Source of the DNA: Actinomycetes bacterium
Lineage (GTDB): Bacteria; Actinomycetota; Acidimicrobiia; Acidimicrobiales; Poriferisodalaceae
Assembly: GCA_024228575.1 (NCBI GenBank)
Contig: JAAETH010000310.1
Coordinates: 1-44,152 of the forward strand
Reading direction: 5' to 3'
Length of the DNA stretch: 44,152 nucleotides
Shown here: positions 2,757 to 23,147 of the stretch, one piece after another
How the letters are laid out: every line of letters begins with the position of its first letter
How positions within the stretch are numbered: position 1 is the stretch's first letter
The notes under the pieces: generated by a model
Database searches by the model: none
The model's input: the letters and a program-made list of their open reading frames with translations, nothing else
What the model was told of the DNA's origin: nothing
Translations under genes and position numbers: made by a program

Positions 2757-4284
2757 GAGATCCGACCCGTTTCGTAGCCCGTTCGGTCAGGTGGTAGCCG
2801 CGTTCGGTTCCTGCGGCGAGGAAGTCGCTGGTGTGTCGTGACCCGATCTCGTCGATGTCGACGATGTCGCATTTGCGGACGAGATACCCGGTGATGCGGA
2901 TGAACTCGTTCGAGTCGAGGTTGAAGGTGAAGTCGCGCATTCCCGATTCGAACGCTCCTCGGATCACGTCGACGATCGCTCGGGGGTTGCGCCGTGCCGT
3001 CTCGTCGAAGTGGAAGATGTCGCTGACGCCCGACGCGAACAGGTGGTGGTGTGGGGCACACGTCAAGATGTGATCGAGTAGCTCGGGTTCCTCGCCGACA
3101 GGAATACGTGTTCCGGCCGTCACCTTGTCGTCGAGGTCGATGCCGCTCTGTGAGTGAAGGTAGGCATACCCGCCTCCGCCCTCACAGTACGGCTGAGGTC
3201 TCGACGCGACCAGCTCTGCCACCCGCTCGACAACCCGCACCGAGAAGGCGTCCGCGAACTCGCCGTGTCCGTAGCGTTCGCTGGTCTTTCCTTCGTGTTG
3301 CATCAAGATGTTGACGCACTCGGCCAGTCCGAAGATGCCGAACATCGCCGAGAACTGCTCCAGCGAGATGAACCCCTCAGCGGCGAGCCAGCTGCTCTCG
3401 AAGAACCGCTGGTCTTCGACCAACGAGCGGATACGTGCCTCGAGCAGTTCTGCGGTGAGTTCGACGTAGTGAGGGAGGGTCGATTCGAGGAACAATTCGG
3501 CCGAGCCCTCGTGACGAAGCGCCGCCTCCTTCAGGTTCAACCGCACCAACGTGTGTGAACCGCCACCGATCTTCAGCGAGTTGTAGCAGCTGACCGATGC
3601 GTACCTCTCACCGTGATCGCCGACCATCATCGGGTGGTTCACGAAATGGGGTTTTGCGGTCTCGAAGACCGTCAACACGGCCTCTTGAACGAGCGAATCC
3701 GGCGTGATGTCGGGGTCGACCTTGAGGGTGATGTTGGGAACCGCCTGGCGTAGCGTTCGCTCGACACGAAGGATCGAGCGGGTTATTCGACTGTCGTGAG
3801 GCCCGAGATCTGTGTGGGCGAAGGCGTCGGGCTGCATCCGGTCTATGCCAATCCAGAACCGCCGCAACATGGTGTCGAGATCGTCGTCGGAGATCGAGTC
3901 GTCGACGAAGGGTGCGAGGACCTTGTCGAGATCGCCCAGATAGACGGGATATGTCGTGACCGACGGGACGTTGGCGTACATGATCTGGAGGAACGCCAGC
4001 GCATCGGGCAGGTTCTGGGGAGGTTCGAGTTCGAGATACTCGATGCCCTCTGACACCGCCTTTTCGTAGTCGGGGAGTATGTACCTCGCCGTGTACGGGG
4101 TGTTGCCCTCGTACATGTCGCAGATGATGCCCTTGTCGAAAGCCTCGTTGCACTCCTGAGAAAGCTCGGGATATGGCATCGCCTCGAGGGCCAAGGACGC
4201 CAGCTGCCGCAGCTTCTGGTCGTAGGCGAGATGGTTCGCCCGGATAATCGAAGCGACCCGATCTTGGAACTCTTGCATGTGCAC
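2728..4284 (-). CDS. Short glycyl-radical enzyme, YjjI family (DUF3029-type); function unknown
   Basis: 518 aa, the size of E. coli YjjI (516 aa). C-terminal 'FIRITGYLVRK' resembles the glycyl-radical fingerprint RVSGY. It is paired with a YjjW-type activase in yjjI-yjjW order. Confidence 0.75.
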   Translation of the reverse strand: MHMQEFQDRVASIIRANHLAYDQKLRQLASLALEAMPYPELSQECNEAFDKGIICDMYEGNTPYTARYILPDYEKAVSEGIEYLELEPPQNLPDALAFLQIMYANVPSVTTYPVYLGDLDKVLAPFVDDSISDDDLDTMLRRFWIGIDRMQPDAFAHTDLGPHDSRITRSILRVERTLRQAVPNITLKVDPDITPDSLVQEAVLTVFETAKPHFVNHPMMVGDHGERYASVSCYNSLKIGGGSHTLVRLNLKEAALRHEGSAELFLESTLPHYVELTAELLEARIRSLVEDQRFFESSWLAAEGFISLEQFSAMFGIFGLAECVNILMQHEGKTSERYGHGEFADAFSVRVVERVAELVASRPQPYCEGGGGYAYLHSQSGIDLDDKVTAGTRIPVGEEPELLDHILTCAPHHHLFASGVSDIFHFDETARRNPRAIVDVIRGAFESGMRDFTFNLDSNEFIRITGYLVRKCDIVDIDEIGSRHTSDFLAAGTERGYHLTERATKRVGSHERDPRPGH

Positions 4285-8653: not shown

Positions 8654-11269
8654 GTGCAAGCGGCTCGTCGTTGCGCGAAGATCACCACGATGCGTGAGGA
8701 TCTGGATCTCGATCATCTTTGCGCTCCCGGCCGATCGGGGTGGGTCGTCATTGGCAAGGGGGGCGCAGGCAAGACGGCTGCCCTGCGGGCGATCGCGGCG
8801 GCGAGCGGTTCGTCGAAGCCAACGCGATGGATCAGGGGCGGGAGGCTCGCGACATCCGAACCATACGAGTCCCTCGAGGCGGTATTGCCCTTCGATGTCC
8901 TGGAGAAACTCCTCGAAGGTGGAACACGACTGGCCCGGCTGAAGGCCCAGAGAGCACTATTGGGCGGGCTCGAAACCGACGGAATCCTCGTGGTCGACGA
9001 TGCCCAGTGGTTGGATCCAGAGACCCTGGGTCTGTTGGCCGGGTTGGCCGAGTCGCGTGAATCGCTCGGACTCGAGATGGTCGTGGGCCACCGCCCGCGA
9101 CTGGACCGAAACCACCTTGCTCATCTCGACTCGATCCTGACCTTCGGTCATCCTGCGGTGGTGTTGGGACATCTTGACGATGAATCGGCCCGTCGTTACG
9201 TCGCATCGGGTCCGCTCGGCGGCCTGGGACCCGTCGCAGTCGACCATGCTGTCGGTCGTTGCGGAGGAGTGACAGGCCTGATCGATCTCCTGGCCGACTC
9301 GTGTGACACCGATTCGTCGGCCCATGAAGCCTGGGTCGGGGGATCAGCTGCCCCACCTCATGTGACCGAGGGGGTCAGGTCGAAGGTGTCGCTGTTGTCC
9401 CAGGGTGCGAGGGAACTCCTGCTCGCGATGTGTTTCGGGGCATCGCCCAACGATGACCTGGTTGAGCAACTGGACGGTGTCGCCGACCACCGCGCCCTCG
9501 GTGCAGCGATGTTCGAGATCGACGACGAGGGGTTTCTCGACGCCGACGGGGCCGAACCGGTTCCCCTGATCGCCGTCGTCGTACCCGAACTCCAGCCGCC
9601 TACCGAGCGAAGCCGCTATCACCTGACGGTTGCATCGGCGCTGTCCGGGCGTTCGGACGCGGTGGTCGCCCGCGCCGAACACCTGCTCGCCGGCGGCGAA
9701 CACTCGGCGTTGGCGGTCGATGTGTTCTTGGCCGCATGTGACCATCTCGTCGACGATGCACCCGATCTCGCGGCGGAGTGGCTCGAGCGCGCCGAATCGG
9801 GCGGCGCTGATCGACTCGAGGTCGCCACTCGCCGTGTGGTGGTGAATGTGCGGCAGGGACGACCCCTCGAAGCTATTCGAGCCGCCGGGCCGCTGTTCCA
9901 GGATGGCAACCGGGTCGATGAGTTGTTTGCCGTCGCCAACGCCTACGTGGACGCGCGGCGCCCGTCGCAGGCAGCCGGTGCCCTGATGCCAATGTTGGCG
10001 GGTAGGCCGGGCGATGTCGGCGACATCGCACACATGTCGGCTGGGCTCTGTCGAGTGATCGCAGGCTCGCTCGACGACGACTACGACATCGTCACCGCTG
10101 CGCTGGGAAGCCGCCCGTTGGCCGATCCCCAGGCCGAGGTTGCCCGGTTGGTGGCGGTTTCGGTCTGCTTGCTGGGTACGGGTGAATGGATTGCTTCGCT
10201 TGCGAGCGCCGCCGATGCCAGCGCCCTCGAGCTGGCGGTGTTGCGCGAGCAGCGACTTCCTTTCTCCGCCAATTCGTTCGCAACCTGGCTTGGCCTGTAT
10301 GTAGGCGACCTCGGCTATTCGCGTCGAATCTGTGACCGCGCTCTCGCGGCGCCGTCGCGTACCGACGCCATCCGGCGCAGCCGGGTACTTCGAAGCGAGC
10401 TCGTGTCCGTGCTCGGAGGTGCGGTCAAGACGTCGATAGACCCTCTGGCGGACTGGTCCGATCTCGGGCCAGTGGACCGGCTGGTGTCGGTTGCGGTGGC
10501 CGCGGGCGCCGCTCGCCGCTCGAACGATATCTCTCGCCTGCATCAGCTACGGCCGCTTCTACACGAGGTCCTTCTGCAACCGCCCGACCTTCTCGGTCTG
10601 GCCGCGTACGGAGAAGTCATGGCGGGCGTGGCGAGGGTCGGCGATCTCGACGTTGCGGATGCTGCGTGTGTTGCGCGCGATCGGGCAATGGAGTTCTGTG
10701 TCCAGCAGCCGGTGCAGGTTCTTCTCGCGTGGATCGATCTGCAGGTCACTATCGCTGCCGACAGGAGGGAACGGTTGCCCGCACTAGTCGATCGACTCGA
10801 GTCCATCGGTCCGCTCGAAGGTCGGCCCGGTGAATTGGTCGCGGCCATGAAGGTGTGGTGCAGCTCGCTGCACGGCTCTGTAGACGCGCAGGCTGTGACG
10901 ACTGCCGGCGGAGCACTCCGCAATCTCGGCTATCGGTGGGAGGCGACACGTATTGTTGGGACGGCGGCGATGCATATCGACGACCAGGCGGCGGCCAAGA
11001 ACCTCCTGGCTGCAGCTCGCGAGATGAGGGCTGATCTGCGCGCAAGCGACGCAGCGCACGCCCCGTTGTCCGCGAAGTTGTCCGAACGCGAGATGGAGGT
11101 GGCCGCTCTCATCAGCGACGGCAACACCCACAAACAGGTCGGCGCCAAGCTGTTCATCTCGCCCAAGACGGTTGAACACCATGTCGCCCGCATACGCCAG
11201 AGGCTTGGGGTCTCATCGCGAGCAGAGATGCTCGAGCTGATCCGCGTCGAACTCGAAACGGCGAAATAG
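8654..11269 (+). CDS. LAL-family transcriptional regulator (N-terminal AAA/STAND ATPase + C-terminal LuxR HTH); IniR-like
   Basis: 871 aa. Walker A 'VIGKGGAGKTAAL' near the N-terminus, then a long helical/TPR-like middle. C-terminal LuxR-type HTH ('EREMEVAALISDGNTHKQVGAKLFISPKTVEHHVARIRQRLGV'). Same architecture and size class as M. tuberculosis IniR (Rv0339c). Start is ambiguous: GTG at 8654 or ATG at 8690. Confidence 0.85.
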   Translation: MQAARRCAKITTMREDLDLDHLCAPGRSGWVVIGKGGAGKTAALRAIAAASGSSKPTRWIRGGRLATSEPYESLEAVLPFDVLEKLLEGGTRLARLKAQRALLGGLETDGILVVDDAQWLDPETLGLLAGLAESRESLGLEMVVGHRPRLDRNHLAHLDSILTFGHPAVVLGHLDDESARRYVASGPLGGLGPVAVDHAVGRCGGVTGLIDLLADSCDTDSSAHEAWVGGSAAPPHVTEGVRSKVSLLSQGARELLLAMCFGASPNDDLVEQLDGVADHRALGAAMFEIDDEGFLDADGAEPVPLIAVVVPELQPPTERSRYHLTVASALSGRSDAVVARAEHLLAGGEHSALAVDVFLAACDHLVDDAPDLAAEWLERAESGGADRLEVATRRVVVNVRQGRPLEAIRAAGPLFQDGNRVDELFAVANAYVDARRPSQAAGALMPMLAGRPGDVGDIAHMSAGLCRVIAGSLDDDYDIVTAALGSRPLADPQAEVARLVAVSVCLLGTGEWIASLASAADASALELAVLREQRLPFSANSFATWLGLYVGDLGYSRRICDRALAAPSRTDAIRRSRVLRSELVSVLGGAVKTSIDPLADWSDLGPVDRLVSVAVAAGAARRSNDISRLHQLRPLLHEVLLQPPDLLGLAAYGEVMAGVARVGDLDVADAACVARDRAMEFCVQQPVQVLLAWIDLQVTIAADRRERLPALVDRLESIGPLEGRPGELVAAMKVWCSSLHGSVDAQAVTTAGGALRNLGYRWEATRIVGTAAMHIDDQAAAKNLLAAAREMRADLRASDAAHAPLSAKLSEREMEVAALISDGNTHKQVGAKLFISPKTVEHHVARIRQRLGVSSRAEMLELIRVELETAK

Positions 11270-11324
11270 AACCTCGCGCGCTGGGCCGGGGACACCTTTC
11301 GCCCGTCACGACTTCTCCCGTCGA

Positions 11325-12800
11325 CTAGACCTGGGCCGCACGCCCCGCCGCCAGCAGGCCTTCACACGTACGGGTGAGGATGCGCGCTGCTTCGATCGTT
11401 TCGCGGGGCATCAGGGGATTCTCGCCCAGACGCTGCCAGTAGGTGTGCTGGCCGATGGCCAATCTGGACAACTCGCCCGCCTCGGTGTTCTGGTCGGCCC
11501 CGAGCCGCTGATGAGCGAGCCCGCCATGAGTTCCGAGCAAACGTTCGGCCCTTTCGGCATCTGGTTCGGACATGTTCACGAATCCAGAGCGGATCGCATT
11601 CAGCAGCTGAACCTCTGCGAACTCGTGCACACTCGACATGATGCGCTCGAGCTCCACGTCGAATTCACGCGAGTTGACCCCGGGGACCGAGCTGACGACA
11701 CGGTCGAAGGTCAGCAGAGCAGATCTGGCCCTGAGAACGTCGCTGCGAGCCGTCAGATGGCTGTGGAGGATTCGTCGGAGTTCGCCGAGGCCGCTGCGAT
11801 CGACGAGCATGTTCGACAATTCGGTGCTGGTGGTGGCCCGTCCCTGGCGCAATAACACAAATGCCAGGCGAACGCCGAAGATGCCGAAGCGGTCTAGCAG
11901 TTCGGAGCGTTCGATCGGCGTGATTGGCAGATCGGTCTCCGCGTTGACAAACCTGTCGACGGTCAACATCAGAGGATCGACCGCTGATCGGTCAGCCTCT
12001 GCAAGCATCAGGAGGACGCGGAACTCGTCCTGGCGCAGGGTTCCGGCGGTTTCGGCGAGTAGTCCGGCTACTGGTATGACGGTTTGACACAGCCGCTTGA
12101 TCTTCGGGTCGGCTCCATAACGCTTCGATATCCGCCGCGCCGACGCGAGTGCATCCAGCCTGCCGACACCGATCTCGTCGGCCCTCGACAAGATGCCGAT
12201 CGAGTTGATGGCACTCGGCCTCGATGTTTCCTGGTCGTGGAACGCTTCGAGGAATCGGACGTCGCTAGCGTGCAGGTGCCGCATCAGGTACAACACAGCG
12301 TCGGTCGTGCTCGCTCCATCGTCTGGTGTGAGGAAGTCGCGGGTCCGGTCCGAGAGGTGTGTGCTGATCGAATCGATACCAGGCGTGTCGATGAGGGTCA
12401 CATCGGACAGAGCCGTCGATGGCCACTCGATTTCGAGGCGTTCGATCTGGTCGGTCGGGGTGCCTCTCAGATCGATGTTCAGCGAACCCTCCTCGCGGGT
12501 GAACGGCAGCTGAGCTGGATCGCCGGCATGAGGGTGCATCGTGACCCGATAGGTCGACCCGTCGCGGTACCAGGTGACCACCGTGGTGCACTCGCCAGCG
12601 TCGGTCGGGGCCAACCGTTCGCTCACGAGGGCGTTCAACAGTGTGGACTTTCCTGCCTTCACCTTGCCGGCGATGGCAACCCGAAGCGGCTGGTCGAGTC
12701 GCCGTTTTGCCTCGTCGATCTGTTGTTGGGCTCCCGTGCCCGCCACGAGGCGCGAAGCCAAACCAGCGAGCATCGACAGCTCATCGCTCAGGACCGTCAT
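11325..12800 (-). CDS. Dynamin-family GTPase, IniC-like
   Basis: 491 aa. G1 'IAGKVKAGKSTLLNAL' and 'LAPTDAGECTTVVTWY' follow the IniC-type N-terminal pattern, with G3 'DTPGIDS'. Size matches IniC (about 490 aa). It is the last gene of the ini-like operon. Confidence 0.85.
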   Translation of the reverse strand: MTVLSDELSMLAGLASRLVAGTGAQQQIDEAKRRLDQPLRVAIAGKVKAGKSTLLNALVSERLAPTDAGECTTVVTWYRDGSTYRVTMHPHAGDPAQLPFTREEGSLNIDLRGTPTDQIERLEIEWPSTALSDVTLIDTPGIDSISTHLSDRTRDFLTPDDGASTTDAVLYLMRHLHASDVRFLEAFHDQETSRPSAINSIGILSRADEIGVGRLDALASARRISKRYGADPKIKRLCQTVIPVAGLLAETAGTLRQDEFRVLLMLAEADRSAVDPLMLTVDRFVNAETDLPITPIERSELLDRFGIFGVRLAFVLLRQGRATTSTELSNMLVDRSGLGELRRILHSHLTARSDVLRARSALLTFDRVVSSVPGVNSREFDVELERIMSSVHEFAEVQLLNAIRSGFVNMSEPDAERAERLLGTHGGLAHQRLGADQNTEAGELSRLAIGQHTYWQRLGENPLMPRETIEAARILTRTCEGLLAAGRAAQV

Positions 12801-12812
12801 CGCAGCACCCGC

Positions 12813-12914
12813 GCCTTCTGGCCGGCCCTTTGGGCCGTCTCCGTGCGGCTGTGTCTTGGTCTCGCCTTCTGGCCGGCCCTTTGGGCCGTCTCCGTGCGGC
12901 TCGGTCGTGGCCGG
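12813..12914. repeat. 51-bp tandem direct repeat (2 copies) in the iniA-like/iniC-like intergenic region, each unit containing a small GGCCC-TTT-GGGCC hairpin
   Basis: gccttctggccggccctttgggccgtctccgtgcggct occurs at 12813 and again at 12864, a 38-nt perfect match with diverged 13-nt tails. The repeat fills the 115-bp gap between the two dynamin genes. Confidence 0.8.
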
Positions 12915-12915
12915 T

Positions 12916-14739
12916 TCATGACAGGACCTCTACCGAGGCCTTGAGGATGCGCTCGAGCTGATCGATCGAAGCATCGAGCTTCTTGATCTTCTCCTTGCGT
13001 TTGGCCTGGCCGGTCTTCAGCGCGACCTGGGTTGCCTTCAGCGACTCTGTGGCCGTTGTGGCCAGCTCCCTGGCCCTTTCGAGGTTCGTATCGCGCAGAT
13101 CTCTCTGGACCTGGCGAAGGGTGTCACGGCTGTGTTTCGTCACGCCGAAGACAACCTCATCGAGGTACTTCTTGATGCCCATCTTGGCTTGCTGGCGGCG
13201 CATCGTGAGCTGGCGTTCGCGCTCCTCCTTGGCGGCCTTGCGGCCCAGCAAACCCCCGACCGCCAGGCTGATGGGCCCGAAGGTAGCCAGTCCGACCAGC
13301 GAACCGAGCATGCCGAACATCAACATGCCGCCATAGCTCCCACGCATGCCCGTGAGCATCGACTGGGCATAGGAAGGAGCTTCGGCAACCTCGACGTCTA
13401 GGGTCTTTCGCCCGGCGAGGACCTCGTCGGGGGTTGCGACCTTCACGTCGGCGATGGCATCGAGCTCGAACACGTCGAGTACACGTTCCGACAACTCGAG
13501 GGCATCGCGTCGAAGGAGATGGTAGTTCTCGGCGATGTCTGCCATCAGCCGTTCCTCGACCATCGGGAAGAGCTCGTCGCCGATCTTGGCCGGATCGTTC
13601 TCGTCGATGAGCACATCGATCTCTGCGACGAGGGTCCGGGTTCGTGTCTTCAGGTCGTGGTCGGTGTTCGATGTCAGGTCAGAGATGCCGTCGTTGAGGA
13701 CAACCTGCCACCGCGATGCAGCGGCCTTCATGTTCTCGGCTCGCTCCTTGGCCTCCCGAGCCTTGGTCTCGAGTTCCTCTCGGCTCGCGGGGTCGGCAAG
13801 TACGTCTCGCATCGTGGTCTCGGTGTCGAGCAGCTGGCCGGCGACTGCTCTGACGTCCGTCATCGCTGCAGTGACGTGGATTGTCTCTGCCTCGGCGAGG
13901 ATCTTCTGTTCGACGCGCTCGACCAGGGCGGGGAAACCACTCTCGTCGTGCATCTCGGGGTCGTTCAGGTCGAGAGCCTTGGTTCGAAGTGGCGAGGCAA
14001 CAGCAAAGATGTCGATTTCGAGACCGGCGTTCGCGAGGTGTTGCTCGTTGAGTTCGAGGATCTTCCTCCAGCGCGGGTAGACATCGATCTTGCTCATGGC
14101 GCAGATGACGTTGGGGCAGCGTTCGTATGCGATGACCAGGAACTCGAGCTCGCTCGCTGTCAATTCCTGAGAGCTGTCGGTGACGAAGACAACAGCGTCG
14201 GTCATGGCCAGAGCGCCCATGGTCGCCTTGCCATGGGCCGACTCGAGGCCTCCGACGCCAGGGGTGTCGACCACACGCAACCCGGCTCGCAGGATCCGGC
14301 GGGGAATCCTGACCTCGACGGTGTGCACCTTCTGGTTGGTGCCTGCAATGTGACCCGAGACCACGAAGGCGGCCGCGTCGTTCAGCTTGATCTCGTGACG
14401 TACATCCTCGTCGGAGCCTTCGGGGCCGGCACAGGTGATCGAAGCTTCGGAGTGTTCGGCGTAGCCGATGACGGTTGCGACGGCCGTGGCCACGTCGTCG
14501 TCGACGGGACATACTGGCGCCTTCACCAGGGCGTTGACCAGGCTCGACTTCCCCTGCTTGAACTCGCCGATGACCAGGACGGTGACCTCGGGTTCGGCGA
14601 GTCGAGCTGTTGTGGTCCTGAGTCTTGTCACGAGGTCTGCGCGTTCGAGGCGGGTGGCTGCACCCTTGACAGCCTCGACGATTTCGGTGGCTCGATTGCG
14701 TCTTGATGTCTGCTGTTCGGTGTTCACATCTACGTCCAT
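12916..14739 (-). CDS. Dynamin-family GTPase, IniA-like (bacterial dynamin-like protein with membrane paddle)
   Basis: G1 'VIGEFKQGKSSLVNAL' and G3 'VVDTPGVGG'. A long helical stalk follows, with a hydrophobic hairpin near the C-terminus (MLMFGMLGSLVGLATFGPISLAVGGLLG). The track ORF extends to 14925, but those first 62 codons overlap the upstream gene, are low-complexity, and sit upstream of a hairpin/U-tract. The ATG at 14739 is therefore preferred. Confidence 0.85.
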   Translation of the reverse strand: MDVDVNTEQQTSRRNRATEIVEAVKGAATRLERADLVTRLRTTTARLAEPEVTVLVIGEFKQGKSSLVNALVKAPVCPVDDDVATAVATVIGYAEHSEASITCAGPEGSDEDVRHEIKLNDAAAFVVSGHIAGTNQKVHTVEVRIPRRILRAGLRVVDTPGVGGLESAHGKATMGALAMTDAVVFVTDSSQELTASELEFLVIAYERCPNVICAMSKIDVYPRWRKILELNEQHLANAGLEIDIFAVASPLRTKALDLNDPEMHDESGFPALVERVEQKILAEAETIHVTAAMTDVRAVAGQLLDTETTMRDVLADPASREELETKAREAKERAENMKAAASRWQVVLNDGISDLTSNTDHDLKTRTRTLVAEIDVLIDENDPAKIGDELFPMVEERLMADIAENYHLLRRDALELSERVLDVFELDAIADVKVATPDEVLAGRKTLDVEVAEAPSYAQSMLTGMRGSYGGMLMFGMLGSLVGLATFGPISLAVGGLLGRKAAKEERERQLTMRRQQAKMGIKKYLDEVVFGVTKHSRDTLRQVQRDLRDTNLERARELATTATESLKATQVALKTGQAKRKEKIKKLDASIDQLERILKASVEVLS

Positions 14740-14740
14740 G

Positions 14741-14784
14741 AAAAGAGAGAACTCGGGTCCCGACCGGTGGCCGGGACCCGAGTT
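14741..14784 (-). terminator. Intrinsic terminator/attenuator-like hairpin + U-tract between the iniB-like and iniA-like genes
   Basis: The minus-strand RNA would read ACUCGGGUCCCG-GCCACCGGU-CGGGACCCGAGU. That is a perfect 12-13 bp GC-rich stem with a 9-nt loop, followed immediately by UUCUCUCUUUU and then the ATG of the iniA-like gene. Confidence 0.55.
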
Positions 14785-14812
14785 TGTCGCTAAGTCGGGT
14801 TGGAAATCCAGC

Positions 14813-16462
14813 TCAGTCGAGGATCTCCACGTCGCCAGTGTCGAAGTTGGCTTCTTCGGTGACGTCGACACTGTCGGCGACCGCAGTGCCGAAGTCCTCG
14901 GACAACGCCGAGCCGTGGTCAGCAACGTTCGAATCGTCGATCGTCGTGAGATCGGTGTCGATCTCGGTGCTGATGTCGGTGTCGATCTCGGTGTTGATGT
15001 CGGTGTCGTTGTCCTCGAGGACGTCGTTGTCTTCGATGGTGGTGGTGTCGTTGTCCTCGAGGACGTCGTTGTCTTCGATGGTTGTGGTGTCGTTGTCTTC
15101 GATGGTTGTGGTGTCGTTGTCCTCGAGGGTTGTGGTTGTGGTGTCGTTGTCCTCGATGGTGGTCGTGGTGGTGTCGTTGTCCTCGTTCGTCGTCTCGACG
15201 TCGGTGACGGTCTGGTCGCCCTGGAGGTTCAGGTTCAGGTCGTCGCCGCTCGAGATGTCGCCGATGCTGAGGTCGGTCTGGTCGCCGGCGCCCGTGTTGA
15301 CATTGCCTTCGCTGTCGATGGCGTCGCCACCAGCTGCCTGGGAACCGTCGGTGGCGGTGATGTTGCCGTCGCCGACCACTGTGGTTCCGCTGCCACCGCT
15401 GGCGTCGACCTGGGTGACCTCGGAGCCGTCGGTTGCGACGGTGGCGTCGCCACCGCTGGCGTCGATATCGGTCACCTCCGAACCGTTGGTTGCCACGTTG
15501 CCGTCGCCGGTGTTGGTGGTCATGTCGCCGCCAACCTCGCCGGTGTTGGTGCCTGTGACATCGCCGTCGCCGCTGTTGACCACGCCGTCGACATCGCCGG
15601 TCACCGTTCCACCGGACACATCACCTTGGACGACCGTCGAGCCGATCACCTCACCGGTGATCGCACCCTCGACTGGGCCGTCGGCTGCGATGGCGCCGTC
15701 GGTTGCGATGTTCGAGTCCTCGACTTCGGCGTTCTCGCCTACCTGAACCGCTCCATCGCCCGCTGTTTGGATGTCGTTCTCGACGTCGAAGTTCTTGGCG
15801 CTCACATCGCCGTCGATGTTTGTGCTGGCGTCGATGTTTGTGTCGCGATCGTCGACGTTGTTGACCGTGCTCTGGTCGATGTGGTTGGTGACGTTCGTGA
15901 CGTAGTAGGTGATCTGTTGCGACATCGCCTCGACAGGGTCGGTGGCGTCGACAACCGGGGGAGCCGGAGGAGGCGTCGGTGCTGCAGTCGGAGCGGGTGC
16001 AGGAGCAGGAGCAGGTGCGGGGCTCGAGACCGGACCTGTGGTGGTCGGCGATGCAGCGATGCCGGCATCGACCTGGCTGACGCCACCGATATCGCCGCCG
16101 GCGACGTTGGTGTCGCCCTCGACGGCTTGGTTGATGACCGGGCCCGACTGGACCGTGGTGTCGGCAACGTCGACACCCTGATCGGCGGCGTTGGAAACGG
16201 CCGCCGCCTGGTTCGTCGCCGTGGTCATGTCCATGTCGTTTGACGAGGTTGTGACCGGAGCCAGCATGCTTGCCTGCTCGGGAGGAAGCTCTTCGCTCAT
16301 CAGCGTTACAGCTTCGTGCAGGTCTTCGGGGGTCAGGTCGTCGAGGCCGTCTTGGACCAGCATCTCCTGCCGGCCGTCGGCGTCGGCTTCTGCCCAGGCC
16401 TGCTGCTTTTCTCCGAACATGATGTCGTAGAGCTTGTCGAAGATCATGGTGTCATCCGCCAT
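14813..16462 (-). CDS. Highly acidic Asp/Thr/Gly/Val-rich tandem-repeat protein in the IniB position (IniB-like by context only)
   Basis: Start ATG at 16462 is preceded by AAAGAGG (the track ORF starts at 16519). A short N-terminal segment 'MADDTMIFDKLYDIMFGEKQQAW' and an APAPAPAP linker lead into about 400 aa of low complexity with octapeptide repeats (IEDNDTTT/LEDNDTTT, IDTDISTE). It is the first gene of the operon, followed by two dynamins, as in iniB-iniA-iniC. Composition differs from the Gly/Ala-rich M. tuberculosis IniB, so this is a positional analogue only. Confidence 0.6.
   Translation of the reverse strand: MADDTMIFDKLYDIMFGEKQQAWAEADADGRQEMLVQDGLDDLTPEDLHEAVTLMSEELPPEQASMLAPVTTSSNDMDMTTATNQAAAVSNAADQGVDVADTTVQSGPVINQAVEGDTNVAGGDIGGVSQVDAGIAASPTTTGPVSSPAPAPAPAPAPTAAPTPPPAPPVVDATDPVEAMSQQITYYVTNVTNHIDQSTVNNVDDRDTNIDASTNIDGDVSAKNFDVENDIQTAGDGAVQVGENAEVEDSNIATDGAIAADGPVEGAITGEVIGSTVVQGDVSGGTVTGDVDGVVNSGDGDVTGTNTGEVGGDMTTNTGDGNVATNGSEVTDIDASGGDATVATDGSEVTQVDASGGSGTTVVGDGNITATDGSQAAGGDAIDSEGNVNTGAGDQTDLSIGDISSGDDLNLNLQGDQTVTDVETTNEDNDTTTTTIEDNDTTTTTLEDNDTTTIEDNDTTTIEDNDVLEDNDTTTIEDNDVLEDNDTDINTEIDTDISTEIDTDLTTIDDSNVADHGSALSEDFGTAVADSVDVTEEANFDTGDVEILD
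14935..15190. repeat. Intragenic tandem repeats (21/24/42-bp units) encoding octapeptide repeats of the acidic IniB-like protein
   Basis: Near-identical units are visible directly (gtcgttgtcctcgaggacgtcgttgtcttcgatggtKgtggtgtcgttgtc...). They encode IEDNDTTT/LEDNDTTT repeats on the minus strand. A second array (ggtgtcgatctcggtgYtgat) encodes the IDTDISTE repeats. Confidence 0.85.
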
Positions 16463-16703
16463 TGTCGTGCCTCTTTCGTGCTTCTCGGCGCCCGGCGCCG
16501 TGTTGTTGTGCATCCACACCGTTGTTGGTGTGTGACATCAACGTACGGAGAATCCGATCCGAGGTCATCGGGGAGAATCCACCCTTGTCGTCGGGTAGGT
16601 GGGAGCCCGATCCCCCTAGGCGTCGATGGGGGATTGGGCGATGCCCCGTAGGGGGTTCGGGGGGTGCTTGGGGGACAACCCCTCGCCGGACCCACCGTTG
16701 TGG
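16463..16703 (-). promoter_or_regulatory. Promoter/operator region of the ini-like operon: palindromes, GGAGAATCC direct repeat and a G-run cluster
   Basis: A 240-bp non-coding gap between the CBS gene stop and the iniB-like start. Contains CACACC-N6-GGTGTG, GGAGAATCC twice about 30 bp apart, and ATCCCCC-N11-GGGGGAT. Plus-strand G-runs: GGGGG-N3-GGG-N12-GGGGG-N3-GGGGGG-N5-GGGGG (about 16617-16672). Confidence 0.45.
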
Positions 16704-18308: not shown

Positions 18309-21300
18309 TCATTGTCGGCCGAGGGCGTCGGCAATTCGACCCAGCGCTGCAACGACGTCGGCCGCGGGGTCGGCCGTTGCCCTGGCGAAGTTCGCCTTGA
18401 TCGCCTTCCAGCGCTTCTCATCTGTCGCGTCGAGGGTTCCTCGAAGGGCAGCCAGGGCCAGCAGGTTCTGCTCGGCCCTGTCGGTCAACGTCTGGGCTTC
18501 GGACGCGTAGTGATCGTCGATGACGGCCGCCAGTTCATCGTCGGTCATGGCCGGAACGATTCGCGACGATATTCGAGCCATGTTGCGGTACGAACCTTGG
18601 AGAAGGAACGGGGGAGCTTCCCGATCGGCGTCGGCGCTCGCGGCCGAGTCGACGTAGGCGTCGTTGACCTGCATGACCACGGTTGCGGCTCGATCGAGCA
18701 ACTCGAGAACCCGAACGGTCTCATCGAGCTCGGAGGAATCCCACCGATGATCGAGTCCATCGGAGCTGACGGCTCTGCGTCCGCGCGACATGGCGACCAT
18801 CACCTCGACATCGTCGATCAGTTTCGTCGACCTGGGGGCAATCGCTGGGCAGGCGGTCACGCTGTTCTCGAGATACGACAGTGCGAATTCGGCGGCGTGT
18901 TCGTCGGCGACATCGCCGAGGTTGTACACGTCGGCACGGTTCACGAGCATGTCGGGCAACTCGAACCGCGAACCGGCGGTCGAGTAGGGGTTGCCGGCCA
19001 TGACGATGGCGAATCGTTTGCTACGCAGATCGTAGGTGCGGGCTTGTCCGGCGTGTACTCCCTCGATGCGACGGGTTGCGTCGGCGAGCGGGATGAAGCG
19101 AGACAGGAACTCGGGATTCGTGAATTGGATGTCGTCGATGAACAACACGACATTGCGAGCCATCGCCAGTGCCAGGTTGACCTTCTCCACCTCGGCCCTG
19201 GCCGTTGCGTTGGGGGCGTCGGCGGGATCGAGCGATGTTGTGGCGAAACCGAGAGCGGGGCCGTTCACCTTCACCATCAGCAACCCAAGGCGTGCTGCCA
19301 TCCAAGACATGAGGGTCGTCTTGCCGTAGCCGGGGGGTGAGGTCAGGACCAGGAGCCCCGACCGACTGAGGTCGTTCGAGTCGACGGTACCCAGCTGCCG
19401 AGCCAGGTTGGCGCCGACGAGGGGAAGGAGCGTGCGGTCGATCAGGCGGTTGCGAACAAAACCGGCCATCACCACCGGCCGGTGAGAGTCGAGATCGATG
19501 TCGTCGCGGACCGCTGAAGTCACGCCACGGCGCAGTTCCTGATACGCAGGCCATCGGGTGGCCATCTCGTCGAAGAGCGGGCCGACCCGTGCCGCCAACT
19601 CGTCCAGCCGAACCGAGATCTGCCCCTGGATGATGTGGCGGTGGTCGCTGACCAGACCACTTGCTGTCACGGCTCCCGAAGTCGGCTGTTCGAAGTGGGC
19701 GATGCCCGGGGTGGCGAGGATTGCGGCAGCCTCGTCGACATCGAAGTCGAGGCGTGCGAGCCGGGGATTGGCTGCGACAAAAGCGCTGAGCCACTCGGCG
19801 AGGTGGGTGTAGCGCTCGTAGAGGTCGGTGCTGTCGATCGATGTGAGGACAACATCACGAATCCGAGACTCGACCGAAGTCTCGAACTCGTCGACCAGCT
19901 CGATGGCCGTCGATGTTGCCGGCAATAGCCCGTCGGTGGGACGGAGTTGGTCGCAGATGTAGCCAGCGGCCACCCTGCAGTCGCGGCGCGACAGAGTCGG
20001 GACGATGTTGGCGAGGTCTTGGGACACCGTTCTCTGCAGACGGTCCGACACCGTGTGGGCGTCGAAGGAGTCGAGAGCGACTCGGGCGGCCTGTACACCG
20101 GCCCCCAGCGCCTGCCGCTGCTGATCGTCGAGTTCGCTGAGAAACAGGCGACCGATGGCCCGCGCGGAACCTGGATAGCCGACACCGTCGGTGCTGCCAG
20201 TCGTCAACAGGGCGGTCAAGAGAACGGCGGCATCGTGATCGTGAACCCCGATCTCGTACCCCTCACCGTGTCGACGCTCGGCGTGTGAGCGAACTCGTTC
20301 GGCGATGTGTTCGGGTATGGCAGCTGCGCTACGCAGTTCTGACACCTTCGACCCAGAAGCGGCATCGTGGTAGACCGCCCAGGCGAGATACTCACATCTG
20401 GCGACCTCTTGTGATTCCGACGGGTAGGAGCGGTTCAGCAGGTCGGCAAATTCCGACAGCTCGTCCGTGACGTCGACCGAGAGATCGGTTCCTGTGATAT
20501 CGACACTCACGCGCCCATTTGATGTCGACATCACGGTCTCGAAGGGTTGGTGATTGGGTGCGAATCGAAACGGGCCGAACCTCAGGGCTCCGTCGTCGTC
20601 GCTGAGGTCCGAGCGATCGCGGACAGTACGACGGGCGGCTTCGGCTCCGGCTCGGAGGGCATTCTTGAGCTCGGCGGCCTGACCCGATTCGCCCAGCTCG
20701 TCCAACTCGCCGGCCAGATCGCGAACCCGGAGCACCATCTGATCGGCCGCGAATAGCGAGGCGACCTCTGCTTCGTCTTCTGCTTCCTCGGCGCGGCGCA
20801 GGATCGTGACGAGCAACCGCTCGCCCGCATCGACAAGTCGTTTGGTTCTCTGTGCCCTCTGATCGACGAGTTCGGAGCGACGTGAGCCGAAGACCTCGTT
20901 CATTCGGTCGCGCAATTCGATGATTCGGATCAGCCGGTCTGGGTCTTCTCCGTGGCGACTCTCGAGGCGTTCGGCGTTGACGAGAAGTCGAGCCAGCTCG
21001 GTGTCGACCTCGTCGGGAGTTGTGGTCGCCATGACCGCCCCCGACAGGGTCTGTTCGAGCAACGCCACCTCGGCGTCGAAGGCTTCTGCCGTTTCGTTGT
21101 CGGCCAGCTCGCGGCGCCTGGCTTCGAGCACAGCGCGCGACCTGTTCGACGCGGCTGTGATGTCGGCAACCCGGCGCACGATGCGGGTACGTGCGGTCGG
21201 ATCGACATTGTCGAGTGCCCCGACAGCGTCGACCACTGCGTCCAGATCTGACGTCACGACCGCCAACCGCGCGGCCGTCTCGGCGACCACCCCGGCCGTC

Positions 21301-23147
21301 GAGGCCTGTGTTCCCTCGATGGTCAGGTCGTCCAGGCGTGTTCTGAACTCGTCGAACGCCGTGTTGTCGTCGAGCACCTCACCGGCTCGCTCGGCCAGAG
21401 CGGTGAGAGACTTGTCGAGATCGGTGATCAGATCCACGATTGCGTCGTCGTCGACCTCGGGGATGTCTTCGAGGAGCGTCACCTCACCGCGCGCACGTCT
21501 GAGGGACCCCAGCGCAGACACAACATCTGTCGGTGTTGTTGCGTTACCGGAAGCAGCGATCTGCCTGCCCACCGAACGTCTTGCTTCGTCGATGCGGGCC
21601 GCAGCATCGGCTCTGAGCCGGCGGACCTTTGTGTACTCGTCGACCAACAGACCGGCGGTCGATGCGGTGTCGCGCATCGCGGCGTGGAGGTCGGTGGCCT
21701 CGGGGTCGGCCAACCAGAGGTTTGTGTCGAGCGCTCGGCGGGCGGCGATGATCAGTGCCTCCCAGGTGCGCTCGCTCGGGTCGGACTCGTCGAGCAGACG
21801 ACCCACGTCGAATACATCGGCCAGGCCCGACACGAGATCGGCGTTGCCTACTCGTGCCACCCAGCCATCGTCACTAGGAGCACTCGACGTGTGGTCGTCG
21901 TCGACGAATGGGGTTGTCCACCACTGGATCGGGTGAACCCGCCTCGGCTCGGCATCGTCGGCTCCGCCCCGGAACAGGACGGTGTCGCCGTTGTCGAACG
22001 TCGCGAATCCGTGGCAAGGAACGACCTGGTTGATCTCGCGTCTGACCAGGTTGTACGGAGCCAGCAGGTATTCGCCCTTGTCGCGTTGGTGGAACACGTA
22101 GAGCAGGTCTTCGCCGTTCGGCGAGGCCACGATCTCCTCGAAGATCATCCCGTCGGTGCCGAGATCGAACACTCGGGTTCCCGCCGTGGCCAGGTGATAG
22201 CCGCCGGGGAACACGACACCCTCACCTCCGGGCAACACCCGGACCGCCTTGCCGATGGCGTCGACGCGTTCGACCGAACGCGTGCGTCGACTGTAGATGT
22301 AGAAGCGAGCGGGTTCGTTGTAGAGACCGATCCTGAGTAGGACGATCTGGTCACCGACTCGGGCGAAGGCCACAGACACATCGGCGAGCGATTGGCCGGC
22401 GTCGTCGACGGCTTCCTCGATCGCTACAAACCCTCCATGGGTCCCGTCCTCGACTCTCAGCTGAAGGCGACCATTGCGGAAGCCGACGAACACCTCGTCC
22501 AGGACGGCTACTGCGGGATGGGCGCCGGCTACCTGGTCGTCTCGTCCACAGGCAACCCACGAGAAATCGTGGGCGCTGGGCCACCGATAGTCGCGGTCAC
22601 CGCGTGCGTCGACGAAGGAGACCCGACCCGCCGTGTCCACCGTCCAGCGCAGGACCACCAGGTCCTCGGTTCGTTCGCCGATGCTGAACGCTGCCAGCAT
22701 CTGTCCGCCGGCGACCCTCAGATCAACAAAGCGGGCCTTGCCGTAGAAGCGGTGGAGCTTGTCGAATTCCTCGCGAAACACCGGGTCTGAGAGGAAGTTC
22801 CGCTCATCGTCGGGTTGCAGCGGCAAGAGCTCGTCGTCGCCGCGCCGATAGAGAGCGAACACGTGCTCGGGTTCAACCTTTCCGAGGTCGAGTTCGACGT
22901 TGTACCCGAGCACCACGAGGTTGCCCACATGGGCCATGTCGCGCGGCGAGCAGGTCAACTCGGTTCGCAGGCGGTCGGATCTCGTGAGCCTGACAGGCAC
23001 AGAACCAAATGTCTGGATGCGTTCGGCATCGATCGCCGAAGCCGCCGTGAGAGCGTCGTCGACGCGTTGTGCCAGTCGGCGTCTCAGCAGGTCATAGGAC
23101 GCTCCGTCGGGAACGCCCGGGTCGTCAACCACCTGTGACCGCCTCAA
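18309..23147 (-). CDS. Giant (1612 aa) uncharacterised protein: N-terminal beta-rich region, long alpha-helical/coiled-coil middle, C-terminal AAA_5 (MoxR/McrB/dynein-like) ATPase module
   Basis: A single uninterrupted ORF with uniformly high GC3. Walker A 'LTSPPGYGKTTLMSW', Walker B 'NVVLFIDDIQ' and the sensor/AAA_5 block 'RFAIVMAGNPYSTAGSRFELPDMLVNRADV' sit in the last ~350 aa. The start overlaps the flotillin stop (TTG at 23147, or GTG at 23132 with GAGG upstream). No confident family assignment for the N-terminal 1200 aa. Confidence 0.8.
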   Translation of the reverse strand: MRRSQVVDDPGVPDGASYDLLRRRLAQRVDDALTAASAIDAERIQTFGSVPVRLTRSDRLRTELTCSPRDMAHVGNLVVLGYNVELDLGKVEPEHVFALYRRGDDELLPLQPDDERNFLSDPVFREEFDKLHRFYGKARFVDLRVAGGQMLAAFSIGERTEDLVVLRWTVDTAGRVSFVDARGDRDYRWPSAHDFSWVACGRDDQVAGAHPAVAVLDEVFVGFRNGRLQLRVEDGTHGGFVAIEEAVDDAGQSLADVSVAFARVGDQIVLLRIGLYNEPARFYIYSRRTRSVERVDAIGKAVRVLPGGEGVVFPGGYHLATAGTRVFDLGTDGMIFEEIVASPNGEDLLYVFHQRDKGEYLLAPYNLVRREINQVVPCHGFATFDNGDTVLFRGGADDAEPRRVHPIQWWTTPFVDDDHTSSAPSDDGWVARVGNADLVSGLADVFDVGRLLDESDPSERTWEALIIAARRALDTNLWLADPEATDLHAAMRDTASTAGLLVDEYTKVRRLRADAAARIDEARRSVGRQIAASGNATTPTDVVSALGSLRRARGEVTLLEDIPEVDDDAIVDLITDLDKSLTALAERAGEVLDDNTAFDEFRTRLDDLTIEGTQASTAGVVAETAARLAVVTSDLDAVVDAVGALDNVDPTARTRIVRRVADITAASNRSRAVLEARRRELADNETAEAFDAEVALLEQTLSGAVMATTTPDEVDTELARLLVNAERLESRHGEDPDRLIRIIELRDRMNEVFGSRRSELVDQRAQRTKRLVDAGERLLVTILRRAEEAEDEAEVASLFAADQMVLRVRDLAGELDELGESGQAAELKNALRAGAEAARRTVRDRSDLSDDDGALRFGPFRFAPNHQPFETVMSTSNGRVSVDITGTDLSVDVTDELSEFADLLNRSYPSESQEVARCEYLAWAVYHDAASGSKVSELRSAAAIPEHIAERVRSHAERRHGEGYEIGVHDHDAAVLLTALLTTGSTDGVGYPGSARAIGRLFLSELDDQQRQALGAGVQAARVALDSFDAHTVSDRLQRTVSQDLANIVPTLSRRDCRVAAGYICDQLRPTDGLLPATSTAIELVDEFETSVESRIRDVVLTSIDSTDLYERYTHLAEWLSAFVAANPRLARLDFDVDEAAAILATPGIAHFEQPTSGAVTASGLVSDHRHIIQGQISVRLDELAARVGPLFDEMATRWPAYQELRRGVTSAVRDDIDLDSHRPVVMAGFVRNRLIDRTLLPLVGANLARQLGTVDSNDLSRSGLLVLTSPPGYGKTTLMSWMAARLGLLMVKVNGPALGFATTSLDPADAPNATARAEVEKVNLALAMARNVVLFIDDIQFTNPEFLSRFIPLADATRRIEGVHAGQARTYDLRSKRFAIVMAGNPYSTAGSRFELPDMLVNRADVYNLGDVADEHAAEFALSYLENSVTACPAIAPRSTKLIDDVEVMVAMSRGRRAVSSDGLDHRWDSSELDETVRVLELLDRAATVVMQVNDAYVDSAASADADREAPPFLLQGSYRNMARISSRIVPAMTDDELAAVIDDHYASEAQTLTDRAEQNLLALAALRGTLDATDEKRWKAIKANFARATADPAADVVAALGRIADALGRQ

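Follow-up and report, generated by a model that had tools for sequence, protein, structure and literature searches.

A conserved GC-rich hairpin between the iniB-like and iniA-like genes of an Acidimicrobiales ini-type locus: a candidate partial terminator and the start of the iniA-like gene

Does the strong RNA hairpin that stands between the first two genes of an ini-type locus end part of the transcription there, and where does the second gene begin? The question is raised by contig JAAETH010000310.1 (assembly GCA_024228575.1; an Actinomycetes bacterium of the Acidimicrobiales, Poriferisodalaceae), 44,152 nucleotides long and called here the window. The locus is of the ini type, with IniB-like, IniA-like and IniC-like genes plus convergent IniR-like and Hsp70-like genes, and the same gene order is found in relatives. 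On balance, and with a confidence somewhat above even, we propose that the hairpin acts constitutively as a partial intrinsic terminator and, in addition, shields the 3' end of the iniB-like message. The elements on which this proposal depends are the following.

14750..14784, minus strand: RNA hairpin of 16 bp, including one G-U and 11 G-C pairs, with a 3-nt loop
14784-14769, minus strand: 5' arm of the hairpin, AACUCGGGUCCCGGCC
14768-14766, minus strand: loop of the hairpin, ACC
14765-14750, minus strand: 3' arm of the hairpin, GGUCGGGACCCGAGUU
14740..14751, minus strand: pyrimidine-rich tail UUCUCUCUUUUC, with 8 U and 4 C in 12 nt, the first two U closing the stem

On the minus strand, the TGA of the iniB-like gene (14815-14813) is followed by 28 nt, by AACUCGGGUCCCGGCC/ACC/GGUCGGGACCCGAGUU, by CUCUCUUUUC and then by the AUG at 14739-14737, and the stem therefore begins 28 nt past the TGA, beyond the footprint of the terminating ribosome. 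The initial annotation, made from the letters of the sequence, had described a perfect GC stem of 12-13 bp; this core is correct but incomplete, as the supposed 9-nt loop pairs further to give 16 bp and a loop of 3 nt. The fold and terminator-scan check that it had proposed for the minus strand came out in its favor. The 35-mer of the hairpin folds at -31.6 kcal/mol, compared with -13.2 +/- 2.6 for its shuffles (z = -7.2; 0 of 200 equally good), and the pair probability of the stem is approximately 1.0 when it is folded in a context of 301 nt. The hairpin 14784-14750 is the most stable simple hairpin on both strands of the whole window and the sole long-stem match in a terminator scan of the same sequence, the remaining matches having 5-10 pairs and a number close to that expected by chance. 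No Rfam family was found at the gathering threshold in the whole window, with only noise from miRNA models at E <= 10 around the site. A second copy of the stem sequence beyond chance was not found in the window, and a repeat or mobile element was rejected on this ground. The hairpin is a real, non-chance feature.

The U-tract described before the AUG is present as a U-rich run, but it is pyrimidine-rich rather than clean. The minus strand of the window contains 17% T, and 12-mers with at least 8 T occur in three places on this strand, one of which abuts the hairpin stem. The tail UUCUCUCUUUUC passes the tail rule of the terminator scan (at least 5 T in 8), and a d'Aubenton-Carafa-type score reaches +25 when the stem is taken as G-C-closed. 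Structurally, the window hairpin is that of an intrinsic terminator, a clean U-tract excepted. Purified mycobacterial RNA polymerase needs a U-tract and does not terminate in vitro at hairpins that lack one, whereas it is more tolerant of imperfect U-tracts than the E. coli enzyme, with help from NusG (PMC3993855). By the U-tract standard of that study, the window copy is a plausible true intrinsic terminator.

To what extent the hairpin is shared was followed in a fold survey of the 50 loci with enough upstream sequence, these loci being phylogenetically non-independent. In 20 of the 50, no 50-nt fold elsewhere in the locus was stronger than the one in the 240 nt upstream of the iniA homologue, and the fold in this region lay below the pooled 5th percentile of the background blocks in 27 (Mann-Whitney p = 4e-13). 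A strong GC hairpin past the iniB-like gene is found in most related loci, including those of M. tuberculosis and M. marinum, and the stem sequences are unrelated across clades (e.g., GACGGGGCCCCGG, CCGGCCCCGCCAC, CAGCUCCGCCAC, CGGAGGCCGGAUC and GGGCCCCGGGGG). Among the window and its relatives L045, L046 and L047, all 16 of the 16 pairs are kept in each sequence, with a loop and flanks that diverge freely. Five pairs vary, four of them on one side and one on both sides (in L046); the changes are U-A to U-G, C-G to U-G (twice) and G-U to G-C or A-U, and the closing pair A-U becomes G-U in L045 and G-C in L046. With four alignable sequences the shuffle control for covariation was non-discriminating (184 of 500 shuffles), and what is informative comes from the slide control and from pairing at 100%. 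The wobble pairs take the form of G-U on the sense RNA and would thus be A-C mismatches on the other strand. Across the loci, 20 fold more stably in sense and 8 in antisense (p = 0.013), a bias that indicates selection on the sense RNA.

Tandem iniB paralogs each have their own hairpin, of differing sequence, approximately 15-50 nt past the stop, which ties the element to the 3' end of iniB and not to the 5' end of iniA. The distance between the hairpin and the iniA start ranges from approximately 0 to 120 nt across loci, the distance from the iniB stop being more constant. The spacing from stem to start is approximately 45 nt longer in L046 and L047 than in the window, and two ACGGAC repeats are still present in L046; from this alignment, the short spacing of the window looks like a deletion between these two repeats.

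The related loci show some further features. Two or three tandem iniB-type paralogs are present in many loci of Acidimicrobiia and Pseudonocardia (L002, L003, L039, L033 and L006), within an upstream part of 2.5-6 kb; a strong hairpin follows every paralog in the Acidimicrobiia loci and the first and last ones in Pseudonocardia. In several loci of Acidimicrobiia and related Actinomycetota (L002, L003, L039, L032, L038 and L055), a recurring (G/U)CGCGU(C/G)C-like motif, not U, is found just 3' of the post-iniB hairpins; it may serve as a signal for processing or as the terminator tail of a particular clade. In L052 (59% identical), an inverted repeat of approximately 23 nt encloses approximately 65 nt at about 3716-3830, between the iniB-like gene and iniA, and this long-range repeat is followed by a second hairpin with a UCCCAUUUUAU tail.

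On the mechanism that we propose, the hairpin would be an RNA-level 3' element of the iniB-like cistron within a co-transcribed iniB-like/iniA-like/iniC-like row. As RNA polymerase exits the iniB-like gene, the 16-bp GC stem would form 28 nt past the stop, and together with the imperfect U-rich tail it would lead a fraction of the polymerases to release the transcript at about 14745-14740. The stem would then shield the resulting 3' end from exonucleases, the polymerases that read through would continue into iniA and iniC, and the outcome would be a level of iniB-like mRNA constitutively above that of the dynamin mRNA. Translation of iniA would start downstream, most likely at the GTG at 14727, the pyrimidine tract and the start lying outside the stem. 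The termination, its efficiency and the stabilizing role of the hairpin are what we infer.

Two sets of negative results delimit this mechanism. No TANNNT -10 hexamer is found in 14770-14728, the stem and the start being just 10-22 nt apart, and a sigma-70 consensus scan, by which actinobacterial promoters are poorly captured, gave no promoter before iniA; an own promoter of iniA was rejected on these two counts. Since no promoter-like element is present in these 10-22 nt, iniA and iniC would be reached by read-through. The earlier claim of a rho-independent terminator inside an operon is therefore kept as the best reading, there being neither room nor a TANNNT for a promoter, with partial termination as its inferred part. 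No competing antiterminator pairing was found upstream or downstream, the best rival duplex reaching -17.9 vs -32.9 kcal/mol, and it follows that the hairpin is not a switch. A regulated attenuator or riboswitch-type terminator was rejected for want of a competing fold and of an Rfam match, and the name of attenuator given by the initial annotation does not hold in the sense of regulated termination.

The same junction can be compared with expression data in M. tuberculosis. Both this species and M. marinum carry the homologous hairpin 16-19 nt past the iniB stop. It reads CACGAACCGGUGGGGAC-GUUCAUG-GUCCCCGCCGGUUUGUG in M. tuberculosis (L058 2980-3020; H37Rv approximately 410817-410857), differs in M. 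marinum by one U-G to C-G change in the stem and is related to the stem of the metagenome-assembled genome (MAG) L029. In RNA-seq of M. tuberculosis, the IniR-dependent fold changes under isoniazid (INH) were 357 for iniB, 32.7 for iniA and 7.9 for iniC, and those under ethambutol (EMB) were 46.2, 5.6 and 1.9, respectively (Boot et al., PMC5760070, S2 Table); the authors comment on a stoichiometry in favor of IniB (PMC5760070). The prediction of abundant acidic protein and fewer dynamins made for the window is in agreement with the first of these series. This iniB>iniA>iniC polarity fits attenuation or differential stability at the iniB-iniA junction.

Several observations weigh against the proposed termination. 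In the window itself, four C interrupt the U-rich tail, and including the two closing A-U pairs in the stem lowers the d'Aubenton-Carafa-type score to -4. Of 31 distinct homologous hairpins, only those of the window and L045 have 5 or more T among the first 8 nt past the stem, the tail being not U-rich in the other 29. Together with the U-tract requirement of the purified enzyme (PMC3993855), this indicates that the function of the family as a whole is not canonical intrinsic termination alone, and most homologous hairpins must work by pausing the polymerase, through Rho or by protecting the 3' end. The Term-seq list for uninduced M. tuberculosis has no sense 3' end at the hairpin between iniB and iniA; 3' ends are listed at 412821 (inside iniC) and 414256 (after iniC), and a 5' leader from 410727 is listed for iniA (bioRxiv 10.1101/2022.06.01.494293). 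An IniR-independent start could also lower the fold change of iniA in this species, where the drop from iniA to iniC occurs without any hairpin.

The main rival is a different reading, which we regard as rather unlikely but as deserving attention: the hairpin would not terminate, the transcript would end by Rho or by an endonuclease cut, and the stem would only pause the polymerase and/or block 3'-to-5' exonucleases, giving the same unequal stoichiometry. The lack of a U-rich tail in most homologous hairpins suits such a scheme, as do the long U-poor stem-loops of actinobacteria, which are found at Rho-dependent ends too (PMC13613805), and the description of termination in M. tuberculosis as mostly Rho-dependent. 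A C-rich, G-poor, rut-like stretch lies at 15180-14940, 155-400 nt upstream of the hairpin; its C/G ratio on the minus strand rises to 3.5, above the 99th percentile of the window, and it corresponds to the (E/L)DNDTTT repeat part of the iniB-like gene. This stretch is nevertheless within a translated open reading frame (ORF), with just 28 untranslated nt before the stem, and in the window and L045, its closest relative, the rare U-rich tail stands at precisely the position required for intrinsic termination. The hairpin could instead serve iniA, either by shielding a processed iniA-iniC mRNA at its 5' end or, with the pyrimidine tract, as a platform for ribosome standby or S1 loading in translation. 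The stem ends 10 nt before the ATG at 14739 and 22 nt before the GTG at 14727, a single-stranded pyrimidine tract and a GGA lie between stem and start, the iniA start has only a weak Shine-Dalgarno, and most loci have the hairpin before iniA. We consider this role improbable in view of the variable distance to iniA as compared with the steadier distance to the iniB stop, of the hairpins that follow iniB paralogs not preceding iniA, and of L048, which has a strong GAGGAG Shine-Dalgarno of its own.

That the terminator is complete, with iniA-iniC forming a separate unit under its own promoter, appears very improbable. The very strong stem and the U-rich tail would allow it, iniA of M. tuberculosis is listed with a 5' leader of its own, and some relatives have 100-120 nt between hairpin and start, with a TAGAAT hexamer in this interval in L051; in the window, by contrast, the 10-22 nt from stem to start contain no TANNNT, and a promoter upstream of the hairpin would still need read-through. 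Least credible of all is a palindrome that works as DNA, whether as an operator or as a cruciform, or a repeat that is mobile or due to chance. The inverted repeat is indeed near-perfect, but the pairing is conserved between clades and the sequence is not, the G-U wobbles are strand-specific, and neither the absence of a second copy in the window and of an Rfam family nor the z of -7.2 agrees with such an origin. The partial terminator with a protecting stem is the reading that we retain for the window.

Where the iniA-like gene begins depends on the following features.

12916..14727, minus strand: IniA-like dynamin GTPase gene, encoding 603 aa if started at the GTG and 607 aa if started at the ATG
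14740..14925, minus strand: spurious N-terminal extension of 62 codons, which overlaps the iniB-like gene and spans the hairpin
14737..14739, minus strand: in-frame ATG, 10 nt after the stem, without Shine-Dalgarno, possibly used, not conserved
14725..14727, minus strand: GTG start codon, in frame 4 codons past the ATG and kept in close relatives

The encoded protein has a Dynamin_N domain (E = 2.5e-20) and matches M. smegmatis IniA (PDB 6J72) over residues 15-595 of 603 (E = 9e-112). Its identity to mycobacterial IniA is approximately 35%; the best match in the species-level genome set is 50% identical, and metagenomic relatives reach 90%, 78% and 77%, one of them being an Acidimicrobiales MAG. 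The extension of 62 codons up to 14925 does overlap the upstream gene and run through the hairpin, as the initial annotation had pointed out. Its rejection of that start was likewise right: the closest IniA homologues are 603-606 aa long, and the codon-position GC of the extension in the iniA frame (0.48/0.69/0.67) is atypical of the gene body (0.66/0.41/0.78), while the same DNA is typical when read in the frame of the iniB-like gene. Judged by these lengths and compositions, the start at 14925 is an artefact and the extension is non-coding in the iniA frame.

The replacement start proposed at that time, the ATG at 14739, fared less well. L045, whose protein is 90% identical, has an ACG at the position of this ATG, and the start called in L045, L046 and L047 is a GTG that aligns with 14727 of the window. 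A GGA at 14737-14735 stands 7 nt upstream of this GTG, and the arrangement GGA-N7-GTGAACAC is found in all four sequences; the proteins P0001, P0002 and P0003 begin MNT... The GTG is also clear of the stem, at 22 nt, the ATG being only 10 nt from the stem base. From this alignment of the closest relatives, by which the ATG at 14739 was rejected as the conserved start, it is probably not the ancestral one and the GTG at 14727 is more likely, with the ATG possibly used in the window strain. Since the GTG has a GGA 7 nt upstream, no special initiation mechanism is needed, contrary to the coupling or alternative initiation that had been called for.

The probable start artefact of the M. tuberculosis gene is of the same kind as that of the window. 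Its annotated iniA ATG (H37Rv 410838; L058 3001) is located inside the hairpin loop, other mycobacterial IniA proteins have 607-617 aa, and in M. marinum a TGA in the same frame separates the hairpin from a GTG start (VTQPDDP...). The 640-aa model of M. tuberculosis IniA is probably 23 codons too long, the true start being the GTG at 410907 (L058 3070) according to this comparison; the 23 extra codons correspond to the translated hairpin loop, 3' arm and spacer. In L052, the called iniA start is probably 16 codons too short, judging by an in-frame GTG upstream.

The remaining genes of the row in the window are the following.

14813..16462, minus strand: IniB-like acidic, repeat-rich gene, 549 aa, ATG at 16462 and TGA at 14815-14813
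11325..12800, minus strand: IniC-like second dynamin GTPase gene, 491 aa, Dynamin_N with E = 2.5e-13
8654..11269, plus strand: IniR-like regulator, 871 aa, AAA_16 and LuxR/GerE domains, convergent with iniC
12797..12919, minus strand: 40-codon basic ORF MNRPRPSRTETAQRAGQKARPRHSRTETAQRAGQKARVLR that spans the iniA-iniC junction and overlaps each of the two genes as ATGA

The acidic protein is 71% identical to the product of the upstream gene of L046, with a shared start, and its central region is homologous (E = 1e-11) to the L039 protein, which is positive for the IniB N-terminal domain. That domain (NF038175) is above its cut-off in the proteins of L039, L033 and L029 and gave no match at E <= 1 in those of the window, L046, L048 and L055. 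The name of IniB proper was rejected, the NCBIfam and Pfam models being without match, and these comparisons suggest that the acidic protein is a divergent, IniB-like one rather than IniB. Its ATG has an AAGAGG Shine-Dalgarno. The minus-strand stretches 16545-16580 and 16605-16639 contain, upstream of this ATG, the direct repeat GGATTCTCC, present twice and 27 nt apart, which is a candidate operator/promoter region for the IniR-like regulator, and a 12-bp hairpin that follows the CBS-domain gene. For the IniC-like gene, synteny and N-terminus agree with the relatives, in which the IniR-like gene adjoins iniC too. No hairpin is found at 11270-11324, between the stops of the convergent iniC-like and IniR-like genes, so that the locus has its strongest terminator-like structure inside the gene row instead of at its end.

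The junction of iniA and iniC differs from that of the relatives, in all of which the iniA stop overlaps the start of iniC in an ATGA. The window has approximately 119 extra nt at this place, among them a tandem duplication of 51 nt (two copies of 48 nt at 94% identity) that is not in the relatives and that starts with a copy of the ancestral iniC 5' end; by its overlaps, the 40-codon ORF could relay translational coupling from iniA to iniC. On the minus strand, the SDR and CBS genes are preceded by a gene at 18309-23147, whose product of 1612 aa has the domains DUF3686 ('ATPase involved in DNA repair'), DUF7902 and AAA_5.

Partial terminators inside operons are well known from E. coli, where the rplL-rpoB attenuator and the internal terminator of rpsU-dnaG-rpoD are examples. 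The window shares with them a GC-rich stem, a short loop and a U-rich tail between cistrons; an excess of the upstream product would likewise be expected, and the absence of an alternative fold would make the element a constitutive one. It differs from canonical intrinsic terminators by an unusually long stem (16 bp) and a C-interrupted tail, and belongs to an uncultured high-GC Acidimicrobiales-like actinobacterium rather than to E. coli. A second known class is that of the intercistronic stabilizer hairpins, such as those of the Rhodobacter puf operon and the repetitive extragenic palindromic (REP) elements of E. coli malEFG, which act through decay only. By analogy, the intercistronic stem of the window could make the upstream mRNA longer-lived and the product ratios unequal, but unlike in these cases the U-rich tail suggests real termination too.

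Closer in phylogeny are the actinobacterial 'I-shaped' terminators without U-tract and the stem-loops of Rho ends, which have, as in the window, a long GC stem a few tens of nt past the stop (PMC13613805, PMC3993855, bioRxiv 10.1101/2022.06.01.494293). Actinobacterial stem-loops at 3' ends are typically long and U-poor, at Rho-independent and Rho-dependent ends alike (PMC13613805). Of this U-poor type are 29 of the 31 homologous post-iniB hairpins, unlike the copies of the window and L045, which are U-rich and closer to an intrinsic terminator by the criteria of PMC3993855. With the iniBAC locus of M. tuberculosis and M. marinum, which is controlled by IniR and encodes the dynamin-like IniA and IniC, the window shares the gene row, the IniR-like and Hsp70-like neighbors and the GC hairpin past the iniB stop. 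It differs in an upstream protein without a match to the IniB N-terminal domain, in an IniA only approximately 35% identical and in its tail, the U-tract of the mycobacterial hairpin being poor.

Taken together, these comparisons open a broader reading, which we put forward tentatively and with doubt: that the hairpin could be a dedicated phylum-wide element by which all ini-type membrane-stress loci, those of Acidimicrobiia as well as of Mycobacterium, fix their IniB:IniA:IniC ratio, in part independently of a U-tract (by pausing, by Rho or by protection of the 3' end), and that it could explain the approximately 10-fold drop from iniB to iniA in M. tuberculosis and expose a mis-annotated iniA start. 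In the literature found, whose coverage was incomplete, so that this is no proof of novelty, neither a terminator nor a hairpin is described between iniB and iniA, and the cause of the iniB>iniA>iniC polarity is not tied to any sequence element. The iniBAC operon is a classic reporter of cell-wall drug stress in M. tuberculosis, and although the class of mechanism proposed here is well known, the result is useful for annotation and for the design of ini reporters and constructs. For the gene model of the window, the start of the iniA-like gene should be corrected to 14727 or 14739 instead of 14925. The cross-phylum conservation of the hairpin and its implication for the start codon in M. tuberculosis are the parts most worth passing on; for the organism itself, the three ini-type products of the window are unlikely to be made in equal amounts.

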